A stretch of 63,844 nucleotides of DNA, counting the filler. It is 11 parts of 11 records of this genome, joined end to end, with 100 filler letters (N's around TTAATTAATTAA, not from the genome) between each part and the next. Parts side by side here need not be neighbours in the genome. Positions count along the whole stretch, not along the records: positions 60,711 to 63,844 come from SRR15195285_1442; 10 more parts are not named here. The stretch is one strand, 5' to 3'. Below are positions 4,150 to 63,844 of the stretch, in pieces. The first letter of the stretch is position 1, and every line of letters begins with the position of its first letter. The position numbers and the translations under genes were made by a program. A model generated the notes under the pieces. That model was given only the letters and a program-made list of their open reading frames with translations. It made no database searches and was not told where the DNA came from.

Positions 4150-4249
4150 NNNNNNNNNNNNNNNNNNNNNNNNNNNNNNNNNNNNNNNNNNNNTTAATTA
4201 ATTAANNNNNNNNNNNNNNNNNNNNNNNNNNNNNNNNNNNNNNNNNNNN
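4150..4249. other. Artificial contig-joining spacer
   Basis: 100 nt of N-run/TTAATTAATTAA/N-run with stops in all frames. The same structure recurs at 9771-9870, 15198-15297, 19966-20065, 32351-32450, 35546-35645, 43639-43738, 52247-52346, 55527-55626 and 60611-60710. Confidence 0.98.
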
Positions 4250-9770: not shown

Positions 9771-10026
9771 NNNNNNNNNNNNNNNNNNNNNNNNNNNNNN
9801 NNNNNNNNNNNNNNTTAATTAATTAANNNNNNNNNNNNNNNNNNNNNNNNNNNNNNNNNNNNNNNNNNNNCTGTCGAATCCATTCCGTCTGATCCAATAC
9901 GGCGCCAGACACTCTTTTTTTGACTCTGCTGTGGCGTGAATCCTGAGCCAGGCGGCCTGTGAGGGGTCGCCGCGTTTTGAGCCCTCCATACAATTGAGTG
10001 GCGTTTTCAGCTGGAAGGTCGTCCCG

Positions 10027-15138: not shown

Positions 15139-16124
15139 ACAAACCGCGCGGCCGCAAGCACAACCACGCAGCAGCAGCAGCAGCAGCAGCGGCGGCGNNN
15201 NNNNNNNNNNNNNNNNNNNNNNNNNNNNNNNNNNNNNNNNNTTAATTAATTAANNNNNNNNNNNNNNNNNNNNNNNNNNNNNNNNNNNNNNNNNNNNATT
15301 CTCGTGCCTCTTCCTCCTGCTCCGAAAAAGCCGTGTCACTCGGGTCGAAATCCCGAAAAGCGCCCCCGAATTAGTGAGTGAAATTTATCAAAAGTAGGGG
15401 ATTCCTGGATTTCTTACTGGAAAATGGTACCATTTCTCCATACCGGTACTAGCGGAATAGTACCAGTTGTTCATCAGTAGGTACTGTAGGTCTGTTCATT
15501 AGACCTACTAGTATGATCCCAACTCGTGGTACGCGTGGTACATGTGTACACACTATGGTAGGAATGAGAATCGACCTGCTGGCTGAATGCGCTCGATGCT
15601 GGCTGGGCACGGGAGAAATCGAAGAAAGAGCTCAGCCAGCGGGCAGCCCGAGGAACCTGCTTTCTGTCCCGCGGCTGGCGAAGAGAACGCATCAATCTCG
15701 CAACGCATCAATCTCCATTTACTTCAAGTTTACGCTGAATACCAACATATGCAATATCTCCTGTGTGTATTCAGCCGGAACGGCGAATCTTCCTCATGAC
15801 TACCCATAGGCAGTTGGAACGAAAAATCACGGAGCAGAGTCACCTCATCAGTCACTTATCTGACTTCTCTCGACGAGTTTTACATACAGAAACAGAGCCA
15901 CCCGTCGCAGATAGCTACGAGATTGTACGGCTCCGTCACACTGCCAACAGACGTCGGCGCGGCGTTGGTCCATTCAGTTGGCTGGGGAGAGCGGTCGCCC
16001 TGTTTCTTGGCGGCGCAGTTGGGTACGATCGTGCAGACAGGCGAGCGGGCAGTGTGGTGGACGCAGGGAACGGGGTGCGCTGCGAGAGAGTGCACAGTCG
16101 GCTTTTCACTGCTGCTGCTGCAGG

Positions 16125-19804: not shown

Positions 19805-20192
19805 TAAGCTGCGTGTGAGGTAGACCAGAAAAAAGAACATCGGATTCGGGCTGGTTGGGAGCGAGAACTCGATCTTAGTCCGCGTTCGTAGGTACCTATC
19901 GACCCGGACCAACCGCGTGGTGTGCGTAGAAAGAACAGCAGCAGTAGCAGCAGCAGCAGCAGCAGNNNNNNNNNNNNNNNNNNNNNNNNNNNNNNNNNNN
20001 NNNNNNNNNTTAATTAATTAANNNNNNNNNNNNNNNNNNNNNNNNNNNNNNNNNNNNNNNNNNNNATCCTGGCATGGGCAGACGCCACGCGCAGCGGTGG
20101 CGCGTTAGGCGCGAGCGTCGCCGGGCGCGGCGGGACGACCGATGCGAAGCCGATTCGGGCCGCGCGCGGCGGGGCGCGCGTACGCCCGATCG

Positions 20193-32220: not shown

Positions 32221-32450
32221 ATCCCAGCGGCTCGTCCAGCAGGAAAATTGGTTGCAGTCGACGTTTTGCTTTTGGTGACCCATCGTGATTTTGACCGACT
32301 CGAGGCATGTCGGAAATCCTGAGAATTCTCAATTCCAGTTTTCATGAGTANNNNNNNNNNNNNNNNNNNNNNNNNNNNNNNNNNNNNNNNNNNNTTAATT
32401 AATTAANNNNNNNNNNNNNNNNNNNNNNNNNNNNNNNNNNNNNNNNNNNN

Positions 32451-35545: not shown

Positions 35546-36196
35546 NNNNNNNNNNNNNNNNNNNNNNNNNNNNNNNNNNNNNNNNNNNNTTAATTAATTA
35601 ANNNNNNNNNNNNNNNNNNNNNNNNNNNNNNNNNNNNNNNNNNNNCCCCCCCCCCCCCCCCCCCCCACCCTCTGCCCTCTGCCCTCTGCCCTCTGCCCCC
35701 TTGAGGCGGGTGTGACCACCTCGCCGATGGGTGGGGGGTGAGTGATGGGGGTGCGCCCGCTGGAGTTGGTTCCTGGCGGCAGCAGGTGGGGCAGCGCGGG
35801 ATCGTCACGTACTTTGTAGTTCGCAACGATCGGCGATCTGCGGGCTGGGGTGGCAGGCCACCTCGGTTGGGCTTGGTCGGCTGGGGTAGGAGGTGAGGGT
35901 TGTCCCGGGGGCGAAGTTGCGGCTTGCTGGGGAGACGGGATGGGGTGGTGTGGTAGCTAGGCGGCTGGCTGGTTTGTCGGGGAGTGGGGTCCGGGGCTGG
36001 GGCACGTGATGGTTTCCAGGTGAGGCTCCGTTCGAGCTCCGGTAGCTCCTGGGCATAGGCTGGGTCGCCTTGGAGGTGCTGGACCAGGAGGCGGAGGATC
36101 CGCCGGGCAGCGCGAGCAGCAGGGCAGATGGTTTGGGAGTGAGCGACACGCCTGGCGTGGACGGGTGGGAAGGCCTGTCCACGGGACGGGACGAGT

Positions 36197-43430: not shown

Positions 43431-43773
43431 CCTCGCTGGCGGCTCTCGGGCGGCTGCACGCGGGAGCTGCCACACAGAGACACGCACAGACAGAGCTGAA
43501 AACTGATGTCGGACTGACAAAGGCGGGGACTCTGAGATGCCAACGAATCGGCCCGCCACGCACGCGCGCGCGTGCGCCCACACATGCAGACGCGTATACA
43601 AACAGCAGAGAGAAGGGGGGGGGGGGGGGGGGGGGGGGNNNNNNNNNNNNNNNNNNNNNNNNNNNNNNNNNNNNNNNNNNNNTTAATTAATTAANNNNNN
43701 NNNNNNNNNNNNNNNNNNNNNNNNNNNNNNNNNNNNNNAGACCGCGGGTGCAAAGCAGTTCTGTGATGACGAG

Positions 43774-52201: not shown

Positions 52202-52414
52202 CGGTAGGGTGCCCTAACTCCCCCCCCCCCCCCCCCCCCCCCCCCCNNNNNNNNNNNNNNNNNNNNNNNNNNNNNNNNNNNNNNNNNNNNTTAATTAATT
52301 AANNNNNNNNNNNNNNNNNNNNNNNNNNNNNNNNNNNNNNNNNNNNACGGGACGGAGTGCAGCCGGCTGAAGTGCATCTACACCGCCTTTTTACAAAGTA
52401 ATCCGCTGGCCAGG

Positions 52415-55526: not shown

Positions 55527-55803
55527 NNNNNNNNNNNNNNNNNNNNNNNNNNNNNNNNNNNNNNNNNNNNTTAATTAATTAANNNNNNNNNNNNNNNNNN
55601 NNNNNNNNNNNNNNNNNNNNNNNNNNTTTGAGCGCCGGTACTAATTCAAAATGAATCTTCATCTCAGAACCCGGACTTTCCCTACTAGATCTATCGATAG
55701 TACATGTAACATGACCCATGAGTCCCTCGCGCGCGGGGATCGCGAGCTTAGGTGCGCCCTCGCGCTTCTGCGGGCTGCGTGTCGACACAGTATGGTGGTC
55801 CGG

Positions 55804-58800
55804 ATGCGCGCAGTGTGGCCCGCGGTGTCGCTGCTGCTGGGGGTGGCGGGCGTGGGCGCGCAGGTTGATATCAACGGCTTTACGCCGCCGGTCGTGGGCA
55901 GGTGCATCAGTGGCCACAACCAGGGCGGCAGCTGTGAGTGTCTTTCTGTTTCCATGAGGTCTGAAGGAGGGGGAGGGAAAGAGCGAGCAACAACCATGTG
56001 CGATGTACGCTAACCTTGGGTGCCTTTTGACAGACGGCGATGGCAGCAACCTCGACCTGCCTGCATGCCAACAGCTGTGCCTGGACGATCCGCAGTGCGT
56101 GTCTTTCGACTACATCCCGCCCCCGAGGAACCAGGCCAACTGCTTCATCTCGTACGATCGCAACTCCGACCCCGGCCTTGAGATCAGTGGTGACGCTGCG
56201 TGCCAGTACTTCGAGCCGCTGTTCCCGTACGGCCAGCGGACTGGCACAGGTGACTGCGAGGCACGCGACTTGACGCGCTTCCCCGGCTACTCCGTGGCCG
56301 CGACCCACACGCAGACGAACTACGATGCGGCGTTCGTGGTTGACAGAGACCCGAGCACCAGCTGGGCGTATGGCGGCTGCGACCAGGCAGCCGGAGCTTG
56401 TGCCAGGGGCTCAGACTGCGCTTGCCCCGTCATGTCGGATCGCAGCTCGTATCCCAAGATCGCAGTCCTCTTGGAGAGTACCGAAGTGCTCGACAACGTG
56501 ATCTTCAACAGTGGATTCGCGGGCGCTCATGGTTACCACCTCACTGGCGGATCAATCTGGTACACCATGGACTCACCGGCAACGCTGGATTCTACGTGGT
56601 TGCCCGTCGGCGGCCTTGAGTTCGGCGAACCCGTTGACGCTGCCGACGTCTCTTCCAACAGCTTTCGCACACCCTCGCATCCCGACGGTCCGTTTGACAT
56701 TTCGCTCCGCTTCAGTCCTATCCGTGCGACGGGACTTATGCTGGACATCTTCGAGACGGACGCTGCCAACAACAACGTCATCTTGAGCGAGGTCAGCATT
56801 CTCACCGCATGCGCGGGCCCACCGCCAGAGTCCGTGCAAGAAGGATCTGAGTGGTTTCTTGTCGCCGAAGAGGCAGTTGGCGACGGCGGCAACGATGCTC
56901 TGCGTAAACTGGAGATCGACGTGCCCGACTTCTACAGGGTGAGAATGGAGTGGGGAAGTGCGGATGACTTCGTTGAGTTCGACGTGCCGAGGGGCACATC
57001 GATCTTTGGCGACTACGTCGACCCGTCAATCCCGCTCACCAATATCGACACAAACCAAGCGATGCTACAGGATGGAGCAGTCTTCTGCAAAATGTGCTCG
57101 AGCTCGTCTGCTCAACAATACGGGGACACTTGCTGGGCAGTGCTGCCAGTCGGCGAGGAAAACCGTGACTGTGGCTGCAATTCTGGTGGTTGGGCAGGCC
57201 ATGGAATCTACTACGGCGGCTTTGACCAGTGCAACACCTGTGGGTGCCGCAGTCCAAACGCTTTCACTGGCCCTACAGACAACGGCCAGGCAAAAGGTGG
57301 AGTGCCGAGTGCAGGTCTTCGGATCTATGTCAAGGCAGAGCAGGAGTGGGCTTTGGAAGATCTAGGTGCCGTCATTATGGACACTACCTCGGACCTGTCG
57401 CAGGAGGCTCCCCAATGTGTTGGTAACTTGCACAATCTGATGAACCCAACTCCAATCCACACGTGTGAAGGCGAGTGCGTGGAGGATTGCCAAGGTGACA
57501 CTCGGTTTATGTTCGGCACAAATGATCCGGACCAGACAATTCTCGTGGACCTTGGACAGGAGCGATATGTCAACCGAATAGGTGCAGAATACTCCATCAC
57601 GGATCGCGAGGTGTGGGAAGTTGTAAGTTTTGAAGTCTCAATAGATAACCAAGACTGGTATACTTTCGGGTCCGTAGGGAACGATGACGACCAGCCTGAT
57701 ATCGTCGACGCCGAAGCGTGGGTCTCGGCTGGAGAACCGATTAAGACTCGCTACGTCAAGTTCCATTTCGGTGGGCATTCGGCAGACTGGGGTGGAGCGG
57801 GCAGCGGCATTTTCCGACTTCATGTCCAGCAGGTTGGCGGGGTGCCCGAGGAGCATCCATGGCCACAGCCCCTCGTGGCTGTTGACATCGACGACACCGG
57901 TGCGATCCTCGTCAGTGGCTCTTCAGGGGTTGAAGGTGTCGTGCACGGCACACCCAGCATTGTGCAAGGCCCAAGCGGTGAGCTGGACGCAGTGCAGTTC
58001 GGTATCGGCAGTTTTGTGCAAATGGGCACGGAGGGAGTGGACACAGACGAGACTTGGACTATTGACTGCTACATCCAAATGGACCCAGATGTAGACCCTT
58101 CGTTTTGGGGAACGCTAACGCGCGGCCATGACGGTGACCATCAGATCATCGAGCAGAACGGAGGGACGGAGCTCGGTGGGTATGAAAATGTCGACGGCCG
58201 CGGCTTCGTCGGCAGCGGCTTCGATATGGCGACATTGGGAACGTCGTGGCATCGGCTGACTGCTGCAGCCCAGTGTGTCGATGATGCGTGCGCACAACGC
58301 GTGCTGGTTTTCTACATTGACGGTGAGGAAGTTGCTCGCACGGATTACCACAGTGAAAGCGACTTTTTCGCCATCGGCAACTACCAGGACGGACAGCAGC
58401 CGTGGCGTGGGCCTATTCATCACTTCCGCATTTACGATGAAGCCTTTTCTCCCGCTGACCTCCAGGGGACAGATGATCCTGATTCTACGGTTCTAAATGT
58501 TCCCCAATATACCGTCGCAACTTTGTCAACCACAGAAAGGCCGATGGGAGTGACTGAGACGCGCCGCTCCTGCTCCAATGCGTTCGCAGATCAGCAGAGC
58601 AACACAGATCCAGTCACGTTCTGTGCGCAGCTGTGCTATGAAGACGAAGACTGCAACTTCTTCAGTGCCTACCCAGTCACATTCCGCCACCCGGGCCGTT
58701 GCTGCTTCTACGGCTCGTCAGATCCGAATTCCGCTACTGAGGCTACGTCTGGCGGCTTCTATTCTATTTCGCGTCCTATCGCGCACGGCTCTGGCGGAGG

Positions 58801-60559
58801 TGGATGGGCCGACGTCATGGCGCACATCGCCGCTGAAGGCTGCAGCTGGGACGACTTTTCTGCTCGTCTAGAAGCCGTAGACGCAGCGTGTTGCTCGGGT
58901 GACGCAAGCTGCCCAACAGGGATACCGACAGAGTGCGACTTCTTCTGCGCGGAGAAATATATTCCTCTGTACGATCGCTGCCATGACCTGCTAGTTGAAA
59001 TGGTGGGTGACCAGCTGCCAGAATTTGACGGACTGGTCGACACGTGCCTGGCCGGTGATGCGGACACGATCCAGGACGTATTCAATGAGCTGAGGAATCA
59101 TGACCACTGCATCTATGACAGTTCTTTTGTAGATGATCGTGACGTCAGCTCAAGTCCGCCACCTCCCGGTGGTGGTCACCGCCGGCACAGGCGCCGCCGT
59201 GTTCAGTTCGGCGGATTCGGAGGCCATTCTGCGGGCAACTCACGTTGCCCACTTCGAGGCTTCGATGACCGTGCAACCCTTGTGGACTCAGCTTGCCAAA
59301 TGGGACAAGGTCTTGGGATGCCAACTTCTTGCAGCACGGCCTGTGCCCTCGAGCTGAAACCGTTCTGGGATGACTGCCATGACCTGATCGAGCGCTTCCT
59401 GGATGACGAAATCGACGAGTTCGATGCGCTGCACGCCGAGTGTGCTGACAAAGGGGTTCGCGCGGTGCTGTATATGGTGGAGAGTCTGGACTGCGATGCA
59501 ACCCCTTACCATCTCACTAGCGGCGGGCGCACGGACTCCGTCATTGCTGATTACCCTGCGAACAATGGAGAGACGAACACGGTGCAATCCTGCGCCGATA
59601 TGTGTGACGATACCGACGGATGTGTTTCCTTTGCGCTCCCCGCAGATGGAGACACTAAGCAGTGCCAGATCCTGAGCGAGCCGCCGACCAGTATAAACGA
59701 CCCCGCTTGGGAAGTCTTCTCGATCCTCCCGACCGTCCCCGATGAGGGCGGGCTGTACGTGCTTGTTGACAGCCCACTGACATGGGACGACGCCCGTGCC
59801 TTCTGCACCGACCGCTATTATGACCTGGCCAGTGTTCACACCGAGGCACAGGCAGCGGCCACTCAGGAGCTCTGCCTTCGATCACGCATTGGCGGGGGCT
59901 GTAAGGTTGGGCTGCATGACGACACCCGCGCTGATACCATGCTTGACTTGAGCGGAGGAACAGGCGGCCACACGGGCGAGACAGTATATACCGTTGACAG
60001 TGCGGGAATGACGCTCACTTCCTCCAACCCTGTGTATTCCAATCAGGACTACTACTACATGGGATACATGTTTGATAATGAGTTCGACAGCCGGGACTCG
60101 CACCGCGATTACTGGCTTGGCGCAGCGAGTGTGGACACTGAGTTTACGTTCGACTTCGAGCCGGCCGTTGACCTCACCCGAATCAGACTCGCGCCGAAAT
60201 GCCGTTCTGACTCGGTTGCTCCTGACTTTCAGGTGACGGCGGTGAGCGACGAAGGCCCGAGGACGATTTCGAATCGCATCCACCAGCCGGATACGGCCGT
60301 CGGAGTGTTTTACGAGTTCCCCATCAACATGGAGGTGACGCAACTTACACTCTTCATCTCCCTGGCAGGGGGAGGAAACTACATCACTTTCAATGAGATC
60401 CAACTGTTCCAGGCAGACGCAGAGGCGGCGGCGCAGGGGAAGCCAGAGCGTCCGGAAGCCTGGTCAGACAGGACGCCGACAAATGTGCCGTTCGATCGCA
60501 GCGCGCTGCCGCGCGATGACACGCCATCGCCGTTCATATGCGAGAAGCATGTGCCATAG
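55804..60559 (+). CDS. Secreted multidomain lectin-like protein (PAN/apple, discoidin, LamG, C-type lectin); intron 55934-56033
   Basis: Signal peptide MRAVWPAVSLLLGVAGVGA; PAN motifs CQQLCLDDPQCVSFDY and CAQLCYEDEDCNFF; LamG WHRL..FYIDG..WRGPIHHFRIYD; CTLD TWDDARAFC..LASVH..PFICE. Confidence 0.8.
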
Positions 60560-61329
60560 AGCACGCACACTATAATGTAGCTCTGTACTGAGCGCTTACA
60601 CGCCAAAGCCNNNNNNNNNNNNNNNNNNNNNNNNNNNNNNNNNNNNNNNNNNNNTTAATTAATTAANNNNNNNNNNNNNNNNNNNNNNNNNNNNNNNNNN
60701 NNNNNNNNNNAATGGTCATAAAAATGTATCGATACCGCCACCGCCCGCTGCATGATGGACTCGACGAACGAGGTGTATTTGAGTATGTCACTGAACAGGA
60801 ACTGGTCGCTAGAGGGTACAGCAAGCCAATTCCGATGCAGTGCTTATTCGACACGGTGTATTTATATATATGTGTTTATATTCGACACACGGTGTATTTC
60901 GATGACTCCTCGGCAGATTGAGAGATTTGGGGTGGATTCTTGTAATTGCATGCATGTGTCAACACATGCACGCGTGGCGCGCGCGCGCGCGCCGGCCGGG
61001 TTGCATGCTGTTGCGCTGGTAGCCTGATACATGTACGGCGACGCAACTACCGCCTGTTCGAGGTGTATGGGCCGGGTAACGCTACAACAACTGCTCACGC
61101 CAGTGTCCACGCTACACGGGCCACCTGTCTGGTACATCCGCACTCGGAAACGACGAAATCGGAAATTTCGGGGAATTTATTATTAACCAGTAACCTTGAA
61201 CTGTCTTTTTGAGTGCGATCTTGGTAGCTGCACGCGCACTACAATCATGATTGTAGTGGTCGTGTTAGCGACAATCTGGCACCAGGAACAACATCTCACA
61301 TTATGGCGTTTTGTCTCGCGTGCTATCAC

Positions 61330-63843
61330 TCAGTCATACAAGATTCCGTCGTTGCTAGTGCTGTCTGCGAGAAGCTCTGGCTCCGCCTCATTGCTACTAT
61401 CATCGCTCGCAATAAGCTCAGGTTCCGGTTCCAACTCTGGCTGCAGCTCAGGTTCACATTGCGACAAAGCCAAGTCGGGGATCTCCTTCAGAATACGGCT
61501 ACAGAGTAGCTTACAATTGGCCTCAAAGTCCTTCTGAAATAGTGGCTGGCGAGGTGTGGGCAAGCTGTTCATTGTCAGCTTGGCCCGAAAGAACCCAGCG
61601 AGCTTCTGCTCCTTAGTCGTGTCGCCCAAAAACGCTCCCTTTGGTACGTTGCCTGTAAACGTGTCGTCCACGCGGACAAGGAAAATATGGGATTCCGGGA
61701 GTGTCTTCAGAATCTTCTCAAGTTCCTTGCGGCATTGCTTGCTCTTCCAGAACGCGTCAGACGGCATGACGATAGCAAACTTAGCCTTGTCCAGGCAACC
61801 AAACCACTCAACCTCCCAGTCACGGCCTGCCGGGACCATCTTGCCGTTGAACGTTGTGATCTTCTGCTGCCGCAGTGCGTTGGCTATCGCCCACATGCGC
61901 TGCTTGCCACGTTCGTTGTCCGTGCCAGAGGCGTATGAAAAGATGCCACTCGGAAAGTCGGTTTCGCAGTCGAACGGAGTCGCATCGTATTCTGGTGAGC
62001 TCGCATCTACTTGCGCTGGCTCCGGCTCCGTCCCGTCCCGCAAGGCCTCCGGAGGCAGCCCCTCACGAATCACTTGCTTGTTTGGAAAAGCTTGCCGAAT
62101 AATCTCTTTCAGCATGGCTGGAACTTCGTGCTCCTGCCTGCGGAAAGAAGGCATGAGGATGAAGCAAATATCATCCTTCAGCCGCAGATTCGCCTCGACA
62201 TATTCATGCACAGCACCACCGTCTTTGCCGCCAGTGCGCGCTCGCGACTTCTCAAGTGCAAAGTCCGGCTTGCCGTGCCGCAGTTCCGTCTCCATGACGC
62301 CGACGAAGCGCAGATTCTGCTGGCGTGCCATTCTCATCTCCTCGTGACAGAACCACCGTGTGAAGGTTCCCTCGTACTCGCCCGCCGCGTCCGCGACGCT
62401 CTCACCTGCTTGCACAGATTCTTTGCGTCCACTCAGGCAGATCAGCAGGCACTCCGATTTGGTCACGCCGTCCTTCATCCCCGCCAGGTTTCGCTTTGTC
62501 GCAGCCACGCCATTGTCGTACCACACCTTGTATCCGAGTTCTTGCAGCTCCAGACACAGGAGGTTCGACTGATCGCCACCTGATCCTTGGTGGTGGCAGA
62601 TGAAGAAGTGGTACTGCTTGCCTGCTGAGAGTGCTGCGACTTCGAGAAGCTGAAACTCGCACTGTCGCTCATTGGGCGGAGAGACCGGTGGCGACGGTTG
62701 ATCAGCGGAGACCACCTTTAGGTCAAAAACCAGCTTGCCTTTCCGGTCGCCGTTCACGTCGATGAACGCGTTGCAGCCGTAGACGTCTGGCTCCGCTCTG
62801 CGAAGGCACCGGACGAGAAACTGCGCGTTGCCTGTGCTGCCATCCCACTTGAAGTTGTCGACGGTATCTTCGACCTCAAAAGCCTCATCAGGCAGCATCA
62901 ACGTCACCGTCACGTCCACTCCGACCGCCAGGTCGAACTGCTTGCGGGTGCTGGCCTCCACTTTGGGTCGAACTGCTTGGCGGGCAGCCTGGACCACAGC
63001 GTCCACCTGAGCCGCCACGAAAGCCTTGATGTCCATGCTGAACACCTTGCCGTTGTTAGGGATTGTCGCGGGCGCGAAGCACGAGAAGTTCACCAAGCCA
63101 TGCGGCTCACACGCCGGCTCAGGCTCCGGGTATCGATACGGGTGCAACTTCTCCGCTCGTTGGCGATGCAGACACTTTCTCTCCTTCGCCGTTTTTGCAT
63201 AGCTGCACTGCGGACAAATGAATGCTACGTCGTCCCGACGTGCATCATCGTCTGGATCGTCCCAACGGCGCATGCACCTGATGCAATTTCCACTCGTGTT
63301 ATGCACAAGCACACCCCCTGCGAAATAACAGTTGGTTTCTGCTACCTCGAAATTAAATACATCGTAGCGTTCCTCAGTCTCTTGCACAGACACAATGGTG
63401 CTCTGTAAGCCGCCAGAATTCAGCAGCTTCGCACCAACACACAGTTGTACCGGGTCGACAATCTGGTCGGTTACGAGTTTTGGTGTATGGGCAGCCCAGC
63501 AACACTGATCCACGAGCCAGTACGGATGATTGGAGGTGCAGACGATCTGCGTTTCAGCGCCACCGCTGTCACGGATAGTGACCAGTACGATGTTTGGTAG
63601 TTGTGACCTCGCCGTCGTCGAAACGACGAAGCTAAGCCGCTCCTTCTTCTGCAGGTGATCGTAGCTCAGCACAGCGTCGCCCTGGCGCACTAGCTCGATT
63701 GCCTTAGTGGTGCCGTCAGCCATCGTAATCGTCGTCCCAGCGACAAAGCAGCCGCCTCTTAGTCTCACAGCCAGGTGCAACGTTACCTCGGAGTCATACT
63801 TACGAGCTTGAAATTCTGTCGCTGTTGCCTCTGATAGCTTGTC
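61330..63843 (-). CDS. Ubiquitin-like tail / Hint domain / Zn-ribbon / beta-sandwich / TIR / TIR protein (5' partial, frame open to the window end)
   Basis: The frame reads ..YDSEVTLHLAVRLRGG-CFVAGT..CTSNHPY..VFNFEV..GVLVHN-TSG. TIRs: HFFICHHQG..WFCHEE and IFSYASG..SKQCRKEL. Confidence 0.88.
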   Translation of the reverse strand, partial: DKLSEATATEFQARKYDSEVTLHLAVRLRGGCFVAGTTITMADGTTKAIELVRQGDAVLSYDHLQKKERLSFVVSTTARSQLPNIVLVTIRDSGGAETQIVCTSNHPYWLVDQCCWAAHTPKLVTDQIVDPVQLCVGAKLLNSGGLQSTIVSVQETEERYDVFNFEVAETNCYFAGGVLVHNTSGNCIRCMRRWDDPDDDARRDDVAFICPQCSYAKTAKERKCLHRQRAEKLHPYRYPEPEPACEPHGLVNFSCFAPATIPNNGKVFSMDIKAFVAAQVDAVVQAARQAVRPKVEASTRKQFDLAVGVDVTVTLMLPDEAFEVEDTVDNFKWDGSTGNAQFLVRCLRRAEPDVYGCNAFIDVNGDRKGKLVFDLKVVSADQPSPPVSPPNERQCEFQLLEVAALSAGKQYHFFICHHQGSGGDQSNLLCLELQELGYKVWYDNGVAATKRNLAGMKDGVTKSECLLICLSGRKESVQAGESVADAAGEYEGTFTRWFCHEEMRMARQQNLRFVGVMETELRHGKPDFALEKSRARTGGKDGGAVHEYVEANLRLKDDICFILMPSFRRQEHEVPAMLKEIIRQAFPNKQVIREGLPPEALRDGTEPEPAQVDASSPEYDATPFDCETDFPSGIFSYASGTDNERGKQRMWAIANALRQQKITTFNGKMVPAGRDWEVEWFGCLDKAKFAIVMPSDAFWKSKQCRKELEKILKTLPESHIFLVRVDDTFTGNVPKGAFLGDTTKEQKLAGFFRAKLTMNSLPTPRQPLFQKDFEANCKLLCSRILKEIPDLALSQCEPELQPELEPEPELIASDDSSNEAEPELLADSTSNDGILYD
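63298..63750 (-). other. Hint (intein-like autoprocessing) domain, 151 aa, no endonuclease
   Basis: Cys1 at 63748-63750; block B TxxH (TSNH); block F VFNFEV; terminal His-Asn at 63298-63303; Thr+1 at 63295-63297. Confidence 0.92.
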
Positions 63844-63844
63844 T

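Follow-up and report, generated by a model that had tools for sequence, protein, structure and literature searches.

A ubiquitin tail, a Hint domain, and tandem TIR domains in one protist protein: a candidate autoprocessing protein

TIR domains consume nicotinamide adenine dinucleotide (NAD) and serve the immunity of animals, plants, and bacteria both as executioners and as sources of signals, and the ways in which they are restrained and activated differ by lineage. The locus described here lies at the end of a 63,844-nucleotide stretch of DNA (the window, by which we mean the whole stretch that was analyzed) and raises the question of what a Hint domain, a self-processing domain, would do to a polypeptide in which it directly follows the end of ubiquitin and precedes two TIR domains. 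We suggest that the encoded protein is a BUBL-like autoprocessing protein, in which a thioester would form at the Gly-Cys junction between ubiquitin and Hint and the TIR module would be freed by Asn cyclization; we regard this as probable, if only slightly so.

Domains of the Hint-TIR reading frame

The gene occupies a minus-strand open reading frame (ORF) at 61330-63843 that runs for 837 codons without interruption and is still open at the window end; all domains lie in this single frame, which is free of stops across every domain boundary. Residue numbers refer to this ORF (P0001) unless the numbering of P0188, the full-length protein, is stated. A first-pass annotation, made from the sequence of the window, had read the order of the parts as a ubiquitin-like ...LRLRGG end, Hint, CxxC..CxxC, a beta domain, and two TIR domains, and this anatomy was confirmed. 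From the N-terminal to the C-terminal end, the parts are the following.

63808..63843, minus strand: end of the seventh SH3-like repeat of ~70 amino acids (DKLSEATATEFQ), not ubiquitin; the string recurs at P0188 683-694
63751..63789, minus strand: C-terminal strand and tail of ubiquitin, EVTLHLAVRLRGG, forming the end of the N-extein; aligns to residues 64-76 of the P0031 ubiquitin
63298..63750, minus strand: Hint autoprocessing domain of the BIL/PT-HINT type, Cys32-Asn182, 151 residues, placed by Pfam, a PDB match, and invariant columns
63295..63297, minus strand: Thr183, at +1 after His-Asn, possible splicing nucleophile
63205..63285, minus strand: CxxC-(19)-CxxC motif (C187, C190, C210, C213), candidate zinc ribbon or knuckle
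62710..63102, minus strand: Ig-like beta-sandwich with one helix, residues ~248-378, outside known families
62080..62628, minus strand: TIR domain 1 (TIR1), residues 406-588, with Glu501/Glu502 in W-x-C-H-E-E
61450..61959, minus strand: TIR domain 2 (TIR2), residues 629-798, with Glu707 in S-x-x-C-x-x-E
61330..61449, minus strand: acidic, Pro/Glu-rich C-terminal tail and stop codon

Residue 31 is the last of the ubiquitin-like tail ...SEVTLHLAVRLRGG, and Cys32 adjoins it without a spacer (63748-63756); translation of the minus strand thus bears out the proposal that TLHLAVRLRGG stands directly before Cys1 of the Hint domain. The first-pass annotation had also described ~30 residues of diverged ubiquitin-like sequence at this place, of which 13 are indeed ubiquitin (residues 64-76), whereas the remainder includes the end of an SH3-like repeat. 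Specifically, residues 19-31 (EVTLHLAVRLRGG), equivalent to ubiquitin 64-76, are the sole ubiquitin-like part of P0001, and residues 1-12 (DKLSEATATEFQ) close off an unrelated repeat, found again further upstream in the full-length protein. The Pfam model PF00240 had no match in the window ORF, even at E-values of up to 1. Because seven of the eight closest Hint copies (at least 45% identity) have a full ubiquitin, ending in ...L.L.GG, abutting Cys1, we conclude that the tail is not there by chance; the eighth copy (P0013) is itself a 41-residue partial match. A GTAAGT at codons 14-16 was considered as the start of an intron and was ruled out, in that the in-frame reading gives the ubiquitin tail that is conserved, and the only AG sites close by would leave an intron of just 17-40 bases.

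Pfam assigned the adjoining domain to PT-HINT (PF07591; 35.4 bits against a cut-off of 27.7, E 1.5e-8, residues 41-182; 33.7 bits in P0188), and the Hint, Vint, Intein_splicing, and Hom_end_hint models all scored under their cut-offs on it. Its best sequence relatives in the PDB are 6Y75/6TMM (phmmer; E 2.4e-9, 40.6 bits, 155 residues, query 2-156 against chain 2-148), and the alignment runs from LRGG/(C)FV, through block B with C-T-x-N-H, to G-V-L-x-H-N. These structures are of BIL2, from the BUBL1 polyubiquitin locus of Tetrahymena (section 2.4 of PMC8616854). The catalytic positions of the domain are intact: Cys1 is C32, block B reads C-T-S-N-H with T103 and H106, His-Asn is H181-N182, and T183 stands at +1, as had been claimed for TxxH, His-Asn, and a Thr at +1. 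Moreover, Cys1, T-x-x-H, and H-N are invariant in an alignment with the four nearest relatives (48-59% identity).

Downstream of the Hint domain, the CxxC..CxxC stretch had been annotated as a zinc ribbon. The motif is there, but the ribbon fold is not supported; because the stretch folds with low confidence in AF2 predictions (predicted local distance difference test, pLDDT, of 48-63), the zinc ribbon stays a motif-level reading. The beta-rich domain proposed to follow it was recovered as a confidently predicted beta-sandwich (AF2 means over 10-residue blocks of 82-97 for residues ~245-384), which is conserved in nine homologs without Hint. A Foldseek search with this domain returned generic Ig-like, macroglobulin (MG), and MSP matches (best E 8.7e-4, with one match at E <=0.001), and the best values in an Atlas search were 0.84-0.86, to bacterial clusters, which at <0.9 are leads only.

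The presence of two TIR domains was upheld by Pfam as well as by both folds. TIR_2 (PF13676) matched in two stretches (50 bits against 28, E 5e-13; best stretch 649-727), and residues 401-800 were predicted by AF2 as two alpha/beta domains with a disordered linker between them (mean pLDDT 83.1). In structural comparisons with VIA-align, TIR1 matched the TIR domain of SARM1/TIR-1 (Z 15.1, root-mean-square deviation 2.5-2.7, 136-140 residues aligned), while TIR2 matched the plant RPPT TIR (Z 15.2) and SPARTA TIR-APAZ (Z 14.3-14.6). A search of solved structures with the TIR sequence gave marginal matches to TIR entries (E 0.55-0.92) and a match to BstC at E 0.0099 over 46 residues. Each of the two TIRs has a Glu where the catalytic residue stands in the motif of SARM1 and of the plant proteins: in TIR1 either E501 or E502 is the candidate equivalent, and Glu707 of TIR2 aligns, weakly (E 0.55), with the Glu of the WC..EL motif in Roq1. 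Among aligned family members cut out by BLAST, C499 is kept in 44/44, E501 in 33/44, and E502 in 38/44 for TIR1, and C704 and E707 are each kept in 25/25 for TIR2. The terms 'immune' and 'NADase' used in the first-pass annotation are not supported as written: the TIR fold and the conserved Glu are present, but the terms were drawn from these features. As a separate observation, the TIR1 subtype is joined in other proteins (P0021, P0022, P0023, P0030) to ankyrin repeats, protein kinase domains, or an LRR-Roc-COR module, and these contexts appear to indicate a shuffled TIR repertoire in these protists.

The full-length protein, its interrupted ubiquitin, and its relatives

P0188 (1682 amino acids) matches the window ORF with 100% identity over the whole query, P0001 corresponding to P0188 846-1682. 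Pfam detected in it four ubiquitin stretches (E 3.5e-95), PT-HINT, and TIR_2, the fourth ubiquitin stopping at ubiquitin residue 63. Using the first 76 residues of P0031 as the canonical ubiquitin query, BLAST placed ubiquitin-like (Ubl) copies at P0188 17-87, 99-168, and 182-247, the third of which continues on inspection of the sequence to ...LRLRLRGG at residue 260, and a further match at 261-323 that corresponds to ubiquitin 1-63 with 86% identity and then stops. Ubiquitin 64-76 is found at P0188 864-876, directly before Cys877. The 540-residue insert between ubiquitin 63 and 64 is composed of seven ~70-residue units, each with a helix and an SH3-like strand pattern, and phmmer with one repeat unit recovered seven units at P0188 324-863; two complementary pieces of one ubiquitin flank this insert exactly. 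The first-pass annotation had asked for a full beta-grasp fold upstream of the Hint domain and would have taken the lack of any Ubl fold there as a refutation, which is borne out by half: there is no contiguous fold, only ubiquitin 64-76 adjoining Hint, but ubiquitin 1-63 does lie 540 residues upstream. BLAST found no ubiquitin match downstream of Hint, where His-Asn is followed by TSGNC..., the CxxC motif, the beta-sandwich, and the two TIRs. Read from its sequence, the order of P0188 is Ubl-Ubl-Ubl-(ubiquitin 1-63, seven putative SH3-like repeats, ubiquitin 64-76)-Hint-CxxC..CxxC-Ig-like-TIR-TIR.

Repeats similar to those of the insert stand ahead of the ubiquitin-Hint unit (Ub-Hint) in P0123, P0252, and P0256. 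BLAST of the insert against the P0123/P0256 repeats gave E-values of 0.036-0.14, which are suggestive only. Two other observations are leads only, namely a Pfam SH3-C_UBE2O match in the P0256 repeats (E 5.7e-7), which has no counterpart in P0188, and an Atlas search with the repeats, in which Mind-bomb SH3 repeat clusters reached 0.79 (<0.9). Within the array itself, P0188 543-696 and 697-860 are near-identical copies, ~154 residues long, of a double repeat unit, the second with ~10 extra residues replacing three; such a pair might stem from tandem duplication in the recent past, from a small intron left unspliced, or from a slip in assembly. If real, a ubiquitin interrupted at 63/64 by a 540-residue array would be a curiosity for work on protein folding and on split ubiquitin.

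Is this arrangement of domains found elsewhere? A full scan of 1.84 billion representatives yielded 4283 matches at E <=0.001, 490 at <=1e-10, and 71 at <=1e-30. Dissection of 166 relatives with five domain pieces revealed none in which Hint is combined with the beta-sandwich or with either TIR. In a later set of 178 relatives, the N-terminus could be aligned in 126 Hint copies from 66 proteins, and a ubiquitin end lies directly before Cys1 in 28 of these copies and 22 of these proteins. A first metagenome scan, with a single protein as the query, gave 69 pattern matches and no confirmed relatives; a second scan, with an alignment as the query, gave 47 loci, among which ubiquitin abuts or is adjacent to Hint in seven and the beta-sandwich or a TIR is present in none. 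Among the 120 matches listed, Hint and TIR occur together only in the window's own protein. We found no description of a Ub-Hint-TIR architecture in the literature, subscription papers and supplements being outside the search. The remark in the first-pass annotation that no Ubl-Hint-TIR-TIR architecture is known as described therefore holds for the 166 relatives, the 47 metagenome loci, and the searchable literature, and, within the reach of these searches, the TIR-TIR cargo and the interrupted ubiquitin appear to be new.

Novelty does not extend to the Ub-Hint cassette, which many protist and metagenome proteins carry along with cargo of various kinds. Hint is followed by ubiquitin in P0123, P0145, and a metagenome contig (L005), by SAM and WWE domains in P0123, by a PARP-like domain (E 6.5e-4, under cut-off) and WWE (E 3.1e-16) in P0229, and by ART in ciliate-like proteins (P0156, 27.6 bits against 22.3; PF01129 in P0186, P0085, and P0258). 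Other companions of Ub-Hint are MORN, further upstream (P0005), A2M (P0145), and a GRDP-like part (P0256). Such variable cargo after Hint is as expected of a release or transfer cassette. By sequence, the cassette is widespread in protists and the TIR cargo is not, and the window's protein appears to belong to a wider ubiquitin-Hint clade whose characterized member is the ciliate BUBL/BIL2. Hence the earlier comparison with ciliate BUBL proteins was right, BIL2 being the best solved relative, but the fusions also occur in many protist and metagenome proteins beyond ciliates.

Three further observations concern these relatives. First, ends linked to NAD or ADP-ribose (PARP-like, WWE, ART) recur among Ub-Hint proteins (P0229, P0123, P0252, P0003, P0166, P0168, P0156, P0186, P0085, and P0258), which, taken with the TIRs described here, suggests a recurring link of the cassette to NAD chemistry. 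Second, contig L005 (1469-5345) encodes four Ubl, LRLRGG/Cys1, Hint, then HN/MQIF ubiquitin and a long unassigned tail; its Hint domain is broken by a frame change at ~2815-2892, probably a short intron, and its layout is classical BUBL-like, outside ciliates. Third, P0032, P0034, P0078, P0119, P0131, and P0189 contain up to seven head-to-tail Hint domains in which ...VHNKGG runs into the next Cys1 (CF...). Some of these poly-Hint proteins are labeled by their source as belonging to an archaeal metagenome-assembled genome (Nanoarchaeota, Thermoplasmatales) or to Omnitrophota. We know of no description of such arrays.

Proposed processing and its alternatives

Because Cys1 and T-x-x-H are intact and the Hint domain is homologous to BIL2, we infer that Cys1 would attack the Gly31-Cys32 peptide bond in an N-S acyl shift, by which the upstream ...LRLRGG end would become a thioester without E1 or adenosine triphosphate (ATP), Gly31 being the predicted thioester site. 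Water, Thr183, or, as in the reaction reported for BIL2, an amine on another protein would then resolve this thioester. In the passages on BIL2 in PMC8616854, the domain is reported to attach its upstream Ubl, without ATP, to lysines in both the downstream Ubl and Ras, and its block B histidine is said to be activated by zinc; conjugation of the Ubl free of E1 and ATP, which was one of the options raised in the first-pass annotation, is thus the reaction reported for BIL2. Because His-Asn is invariant, a second step can be predicted in which Asn182 would cyclize and cut after His-Asn, setting CxxC-Ig-like-TIR-TIR free. The freed TIRs would cleave NAD, and processing would be a one-shot maturation or activation step. 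Because both TIRs keep the Glu used by NAD-cleaving TIRs, the freed module would most likely be an NAD-consuming signaling or suicide effector.

The residue at +1 bears on how the thioester is resolved. Of the 25 Ub-abutting Hint copies with a visible C-terminus, all keep His-Asn, while +1 is T in eight, M in seven, A in three, N, K, and S in two each, and D in one. In the nearest clade (at least 45% identity, C-terminus visible), +1 is Thr in five of seven copies, namely those of the window, P0031, P0169, P0052, and P0005, and it is K in P0168 (60% identity) and D in P0003 (50% identity). Obligate splicing is disfavored because Thr at +1 is poorly conserved among the Ub-abutting relatives (8/25, or 10/25 including Ser); the pattern favors cleavage or transfer as the conserved function, with splicing possible for this protein.

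This brings us to canonical cis-splicing, in which Thr183 would attack the thioester, Asn182 would cyclize, and Hint would leave as a mini-intein, giving a linear fusion of the ubiquitin tail to the TIR module that would be open to deubiquitinases or to ubiquitin-fusion degradation. All class 1 splicing intein residues are present (C32, T103..H106, H181-N182, and T183, that is, all four canonical positions), and Thr is the prevailing +1 residue of the nearest clade, the window counted. Nevertheless, we think this outcome unlikely: the same clade includes K and D at +1, copies in which ubiquitin comes next have M or A there, and BIL2 is reported in the passages concerned to make an isopeptide bond to lysine and not a peptide bond at +1 (PMC8616854). 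In addition, splicing would restore no host protein, in that Hint is flanked by the tail of ubiquitin and by a TIR module unrelated to it, and Mid-TIR1 relatives exist without the N-terminal ubiquitin part.

Several observations weigh against autoprocessing with release of the TIR module. The window is a pseudomolecule of contigs, several of them with long poly-G or poly-C ends: ten identical spacers (N44-TTAATTAATTAA-N44, at 4150-4249, 9771-9870, 15198-15297, 19966-20065, 32351-32450, 35546-35645, 43639-43738, 52247-52346, 55527-55626, and 60611-60710) split it into 11 pieces, of which the contig carrying the Hint-TIR gene starts at 60711. We mapped contigs from four sequencing runs to the window, all pieces being 33-515 bases long, and none spans 63104-63220, between Hint and the beta-sandwich, although such a gap proves nothing. 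Because the window is a pseudomolecule and this segment is unbridged, a chimeric join is conceivable. The Hint+TIR fusion is known from a single record, and the Mid-TIR1 module also stands alone (P0019, P0020, P0004). The Hint-adjacent N-extein consists of only the 13-residue ubiquitin tail, and a two-chain prediction for P0188 261-323 with 855-1030 scored 0.50, which is weak, against 0.00 for the best control (partner pLDDT 82; runs agreeing in at least 71% of contacts). For comparison, the mark for a complex was reached by 51/78 solved complexes and by 2/108 mismatched pairs, and it was reached with a score <=0.60 by only 5 of the 78 solved complexes and by all four mismatches that passed (of 180). 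The pass may reflect the model's memory of ubiquitin structures. Lastly, the proposed NADase activity is read from one conserved residue and the fold.

Some of these observations would be explained if the ubiquitin-repeat-Hint part and the Ig-like-TIR-TIR part came from separate genes or transcripts joined in a chimeric contig, or if the 540-residue insert were an intron, and to these one can add that removal of the insert would join ubiquitin 1-63 and 64-76 into a normal 76-residue ubiquitin, and that no second Hint+TIR protein was recovered in the searches described above. Furthermore, no contig of the four runs covers 63753-63806 or bridges the join of ubiquitin tail and Hint, a gap that likewise proves nothing. 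However, the 837 codons continue in frame without a stop across the domain boundaries, and the insert is an open frame of seven recognizable protein repeats, akin to those preceding Ub-Hint in other proteins. On inspection of the bases, no acceptor-type pyrimidine tract was seen before the ubiquitin tail, and a Cys-rich stretch directly behind His-Asn is also a feature of the nearest relative, P0031. We therefore consider an artifact of this kind quite improbable.

That Hint is a catalytically silent structural or binding module, in a TIR protein that stays unprocessed and acts as a large scaffold through its ubiquitin-like and SH3-like domains, is very improbable, because, even if the interrupted ubiquitin fold beside the active site might disturb the N-extein geometry, every residue for both cleavage steps is kept, and one would hardly expect these residues to be invariant in relatives of 48-59% identity unless catalysis were under selection.

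Autoprocessing with release of the TIR module can be extended into a bolder scheme, which we offer as a long shot. Here, the split ubiquitin, Hint, and the TIR pair would form a single-use switch, in which binding by the repeats would gate ubiquitin folding and thioester geometry, the E1-free ubiquitin end would pass to a target lysine or, via a neighboring NAD-binding domain, to an NAD-derived ribose hydroxyl, and Asn cyclization would free the TIR NADase. Ub-Hint joined to ART, PARP-like, WWE, or TIR domains would then represent an ancient enzyme-free link between ubiquitin and ADP-ribose in protist immunity or cell death. The recurrence of these combinations makes a link between ubiquitin activation and NAD/ADP-ribose chemistry directly testable with recombinant protein. 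If the proposed autoprocessing is true, TIR domains would be subject to one more kind of control, an irreversible one exerted by Hint coupled to a ubiquitin-like end, and E1-independent Ubl activation, known so far from a single ciliate protein, would reach marine protists and an effector of the immune type.

As for the organism, aquatic and seawater metagenome runs contain near-identical fragments of the Hint-TIR gene, two DNA contigs (X1 record 8 and X2 record 13) extend beyond the window end, and an exact 35-base search of viral_contigs gave no match. A metatranscriptome run contributed two contigs at 61539-61807 and 62938-63103 (at least 99% identity), a weak hint of expression. Eukaryotic genes (NPR2, Urb2, and Piezo) on other contigs of the pseudomolecule say only that the record is eukaryotic, and because the window is a linker-joined contig set, gene neighborhood across the spacers is uninformative. 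The host is a eukaryote, a marine protist sampled by metagenomics. Elsewhere in the window, on another contig, a plus-strand ORF of 1518 residues (56003-60559) combines PAN, F5/8 type C, and Laminin_G_3 domains with Cys-rich stretches, and looks like a secreted adhesion or lectin protein.

Comparison with known systems

Mini-inteins and the C-terminal Hint domain of Hedgehog belong to the same fold family as the domain described here and share the N-S acyl shift at residue 1, and mini-inteins also share the terminal Asn and a +1 nucleophile. In contrast to mini-inteins, the protein contains no homing endonuclease and no interrupted host enzyme, and in contrast to Hedgehog it contains no sterol-recognition region.

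The NAD-cleaving TIRs of SARM1/TIR-1, of the plant TNL proteins RPP1, Roq1, and L6, and of SPARTA TIR-APAZ resemble the TIR domains in fold (Z 14-15) and in the Glu at the catalytic motif position. The differences are that the similarity in sequence is marginal (E 0.55-0.9), that the TIRs stand in tandem behind Hint, and that the sensor domains usual for NAD-cleaving TIR proteins (ARM/SAM, NB-ARC-LRR, Argonaute) are not in this protein.

With the bacterial polymorphic toxins, the protein shares PT-HINT (PF07591) as its best-scoring Pfam Hint model as well as the position of Hint just ahead of a variable C-terminal effector. In the relevant passages of PMC3113570, PMC3417536, and PMC3482391, Hint domains are described as release peptidases before toxin domains, and ubiquitin-Hint fusions are not mentioned in those passages. 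The toxins are bacterial and secreted, their Hint domain is preceded by trafficking and pre-toxin domains, and immunity genes accompany them, whereas here ubiquitin-like domains and SH3-like repeats lie upstream and the host is a eukaryote.

The closest likeness is to BUBL/BIL2, with a homologous Hint domain (E 2.4e-9), a ubiquitin-like partner upstream, and ...RGG immediately ahead of residue 1. A domain that uses NAD also closes the BUBL1 locus, where the molecule is named NAD(P)(+)--arginine ADP-ribosyltransferase in the PDB. The classical BUBL order is Ubl-BIL-Ubl, with the downstream Ubl giving the acceptor lysine according to the passages on BIL2 (PMC8616854), whereas in the present protein CxxC-Ig-like-TIR-TIR, led by the +1 Thr, makes up the C-extein, the 540-residue repeat array splits the upstream ubiquitin, and the host is a marine protist from metagenomes and not a ciliate genome. 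On the strength of this comparison, the protein would appear to work like a BUBL/BIL2-type cassette, while standing apart from the classical Ubl-BIL-Ubl members.

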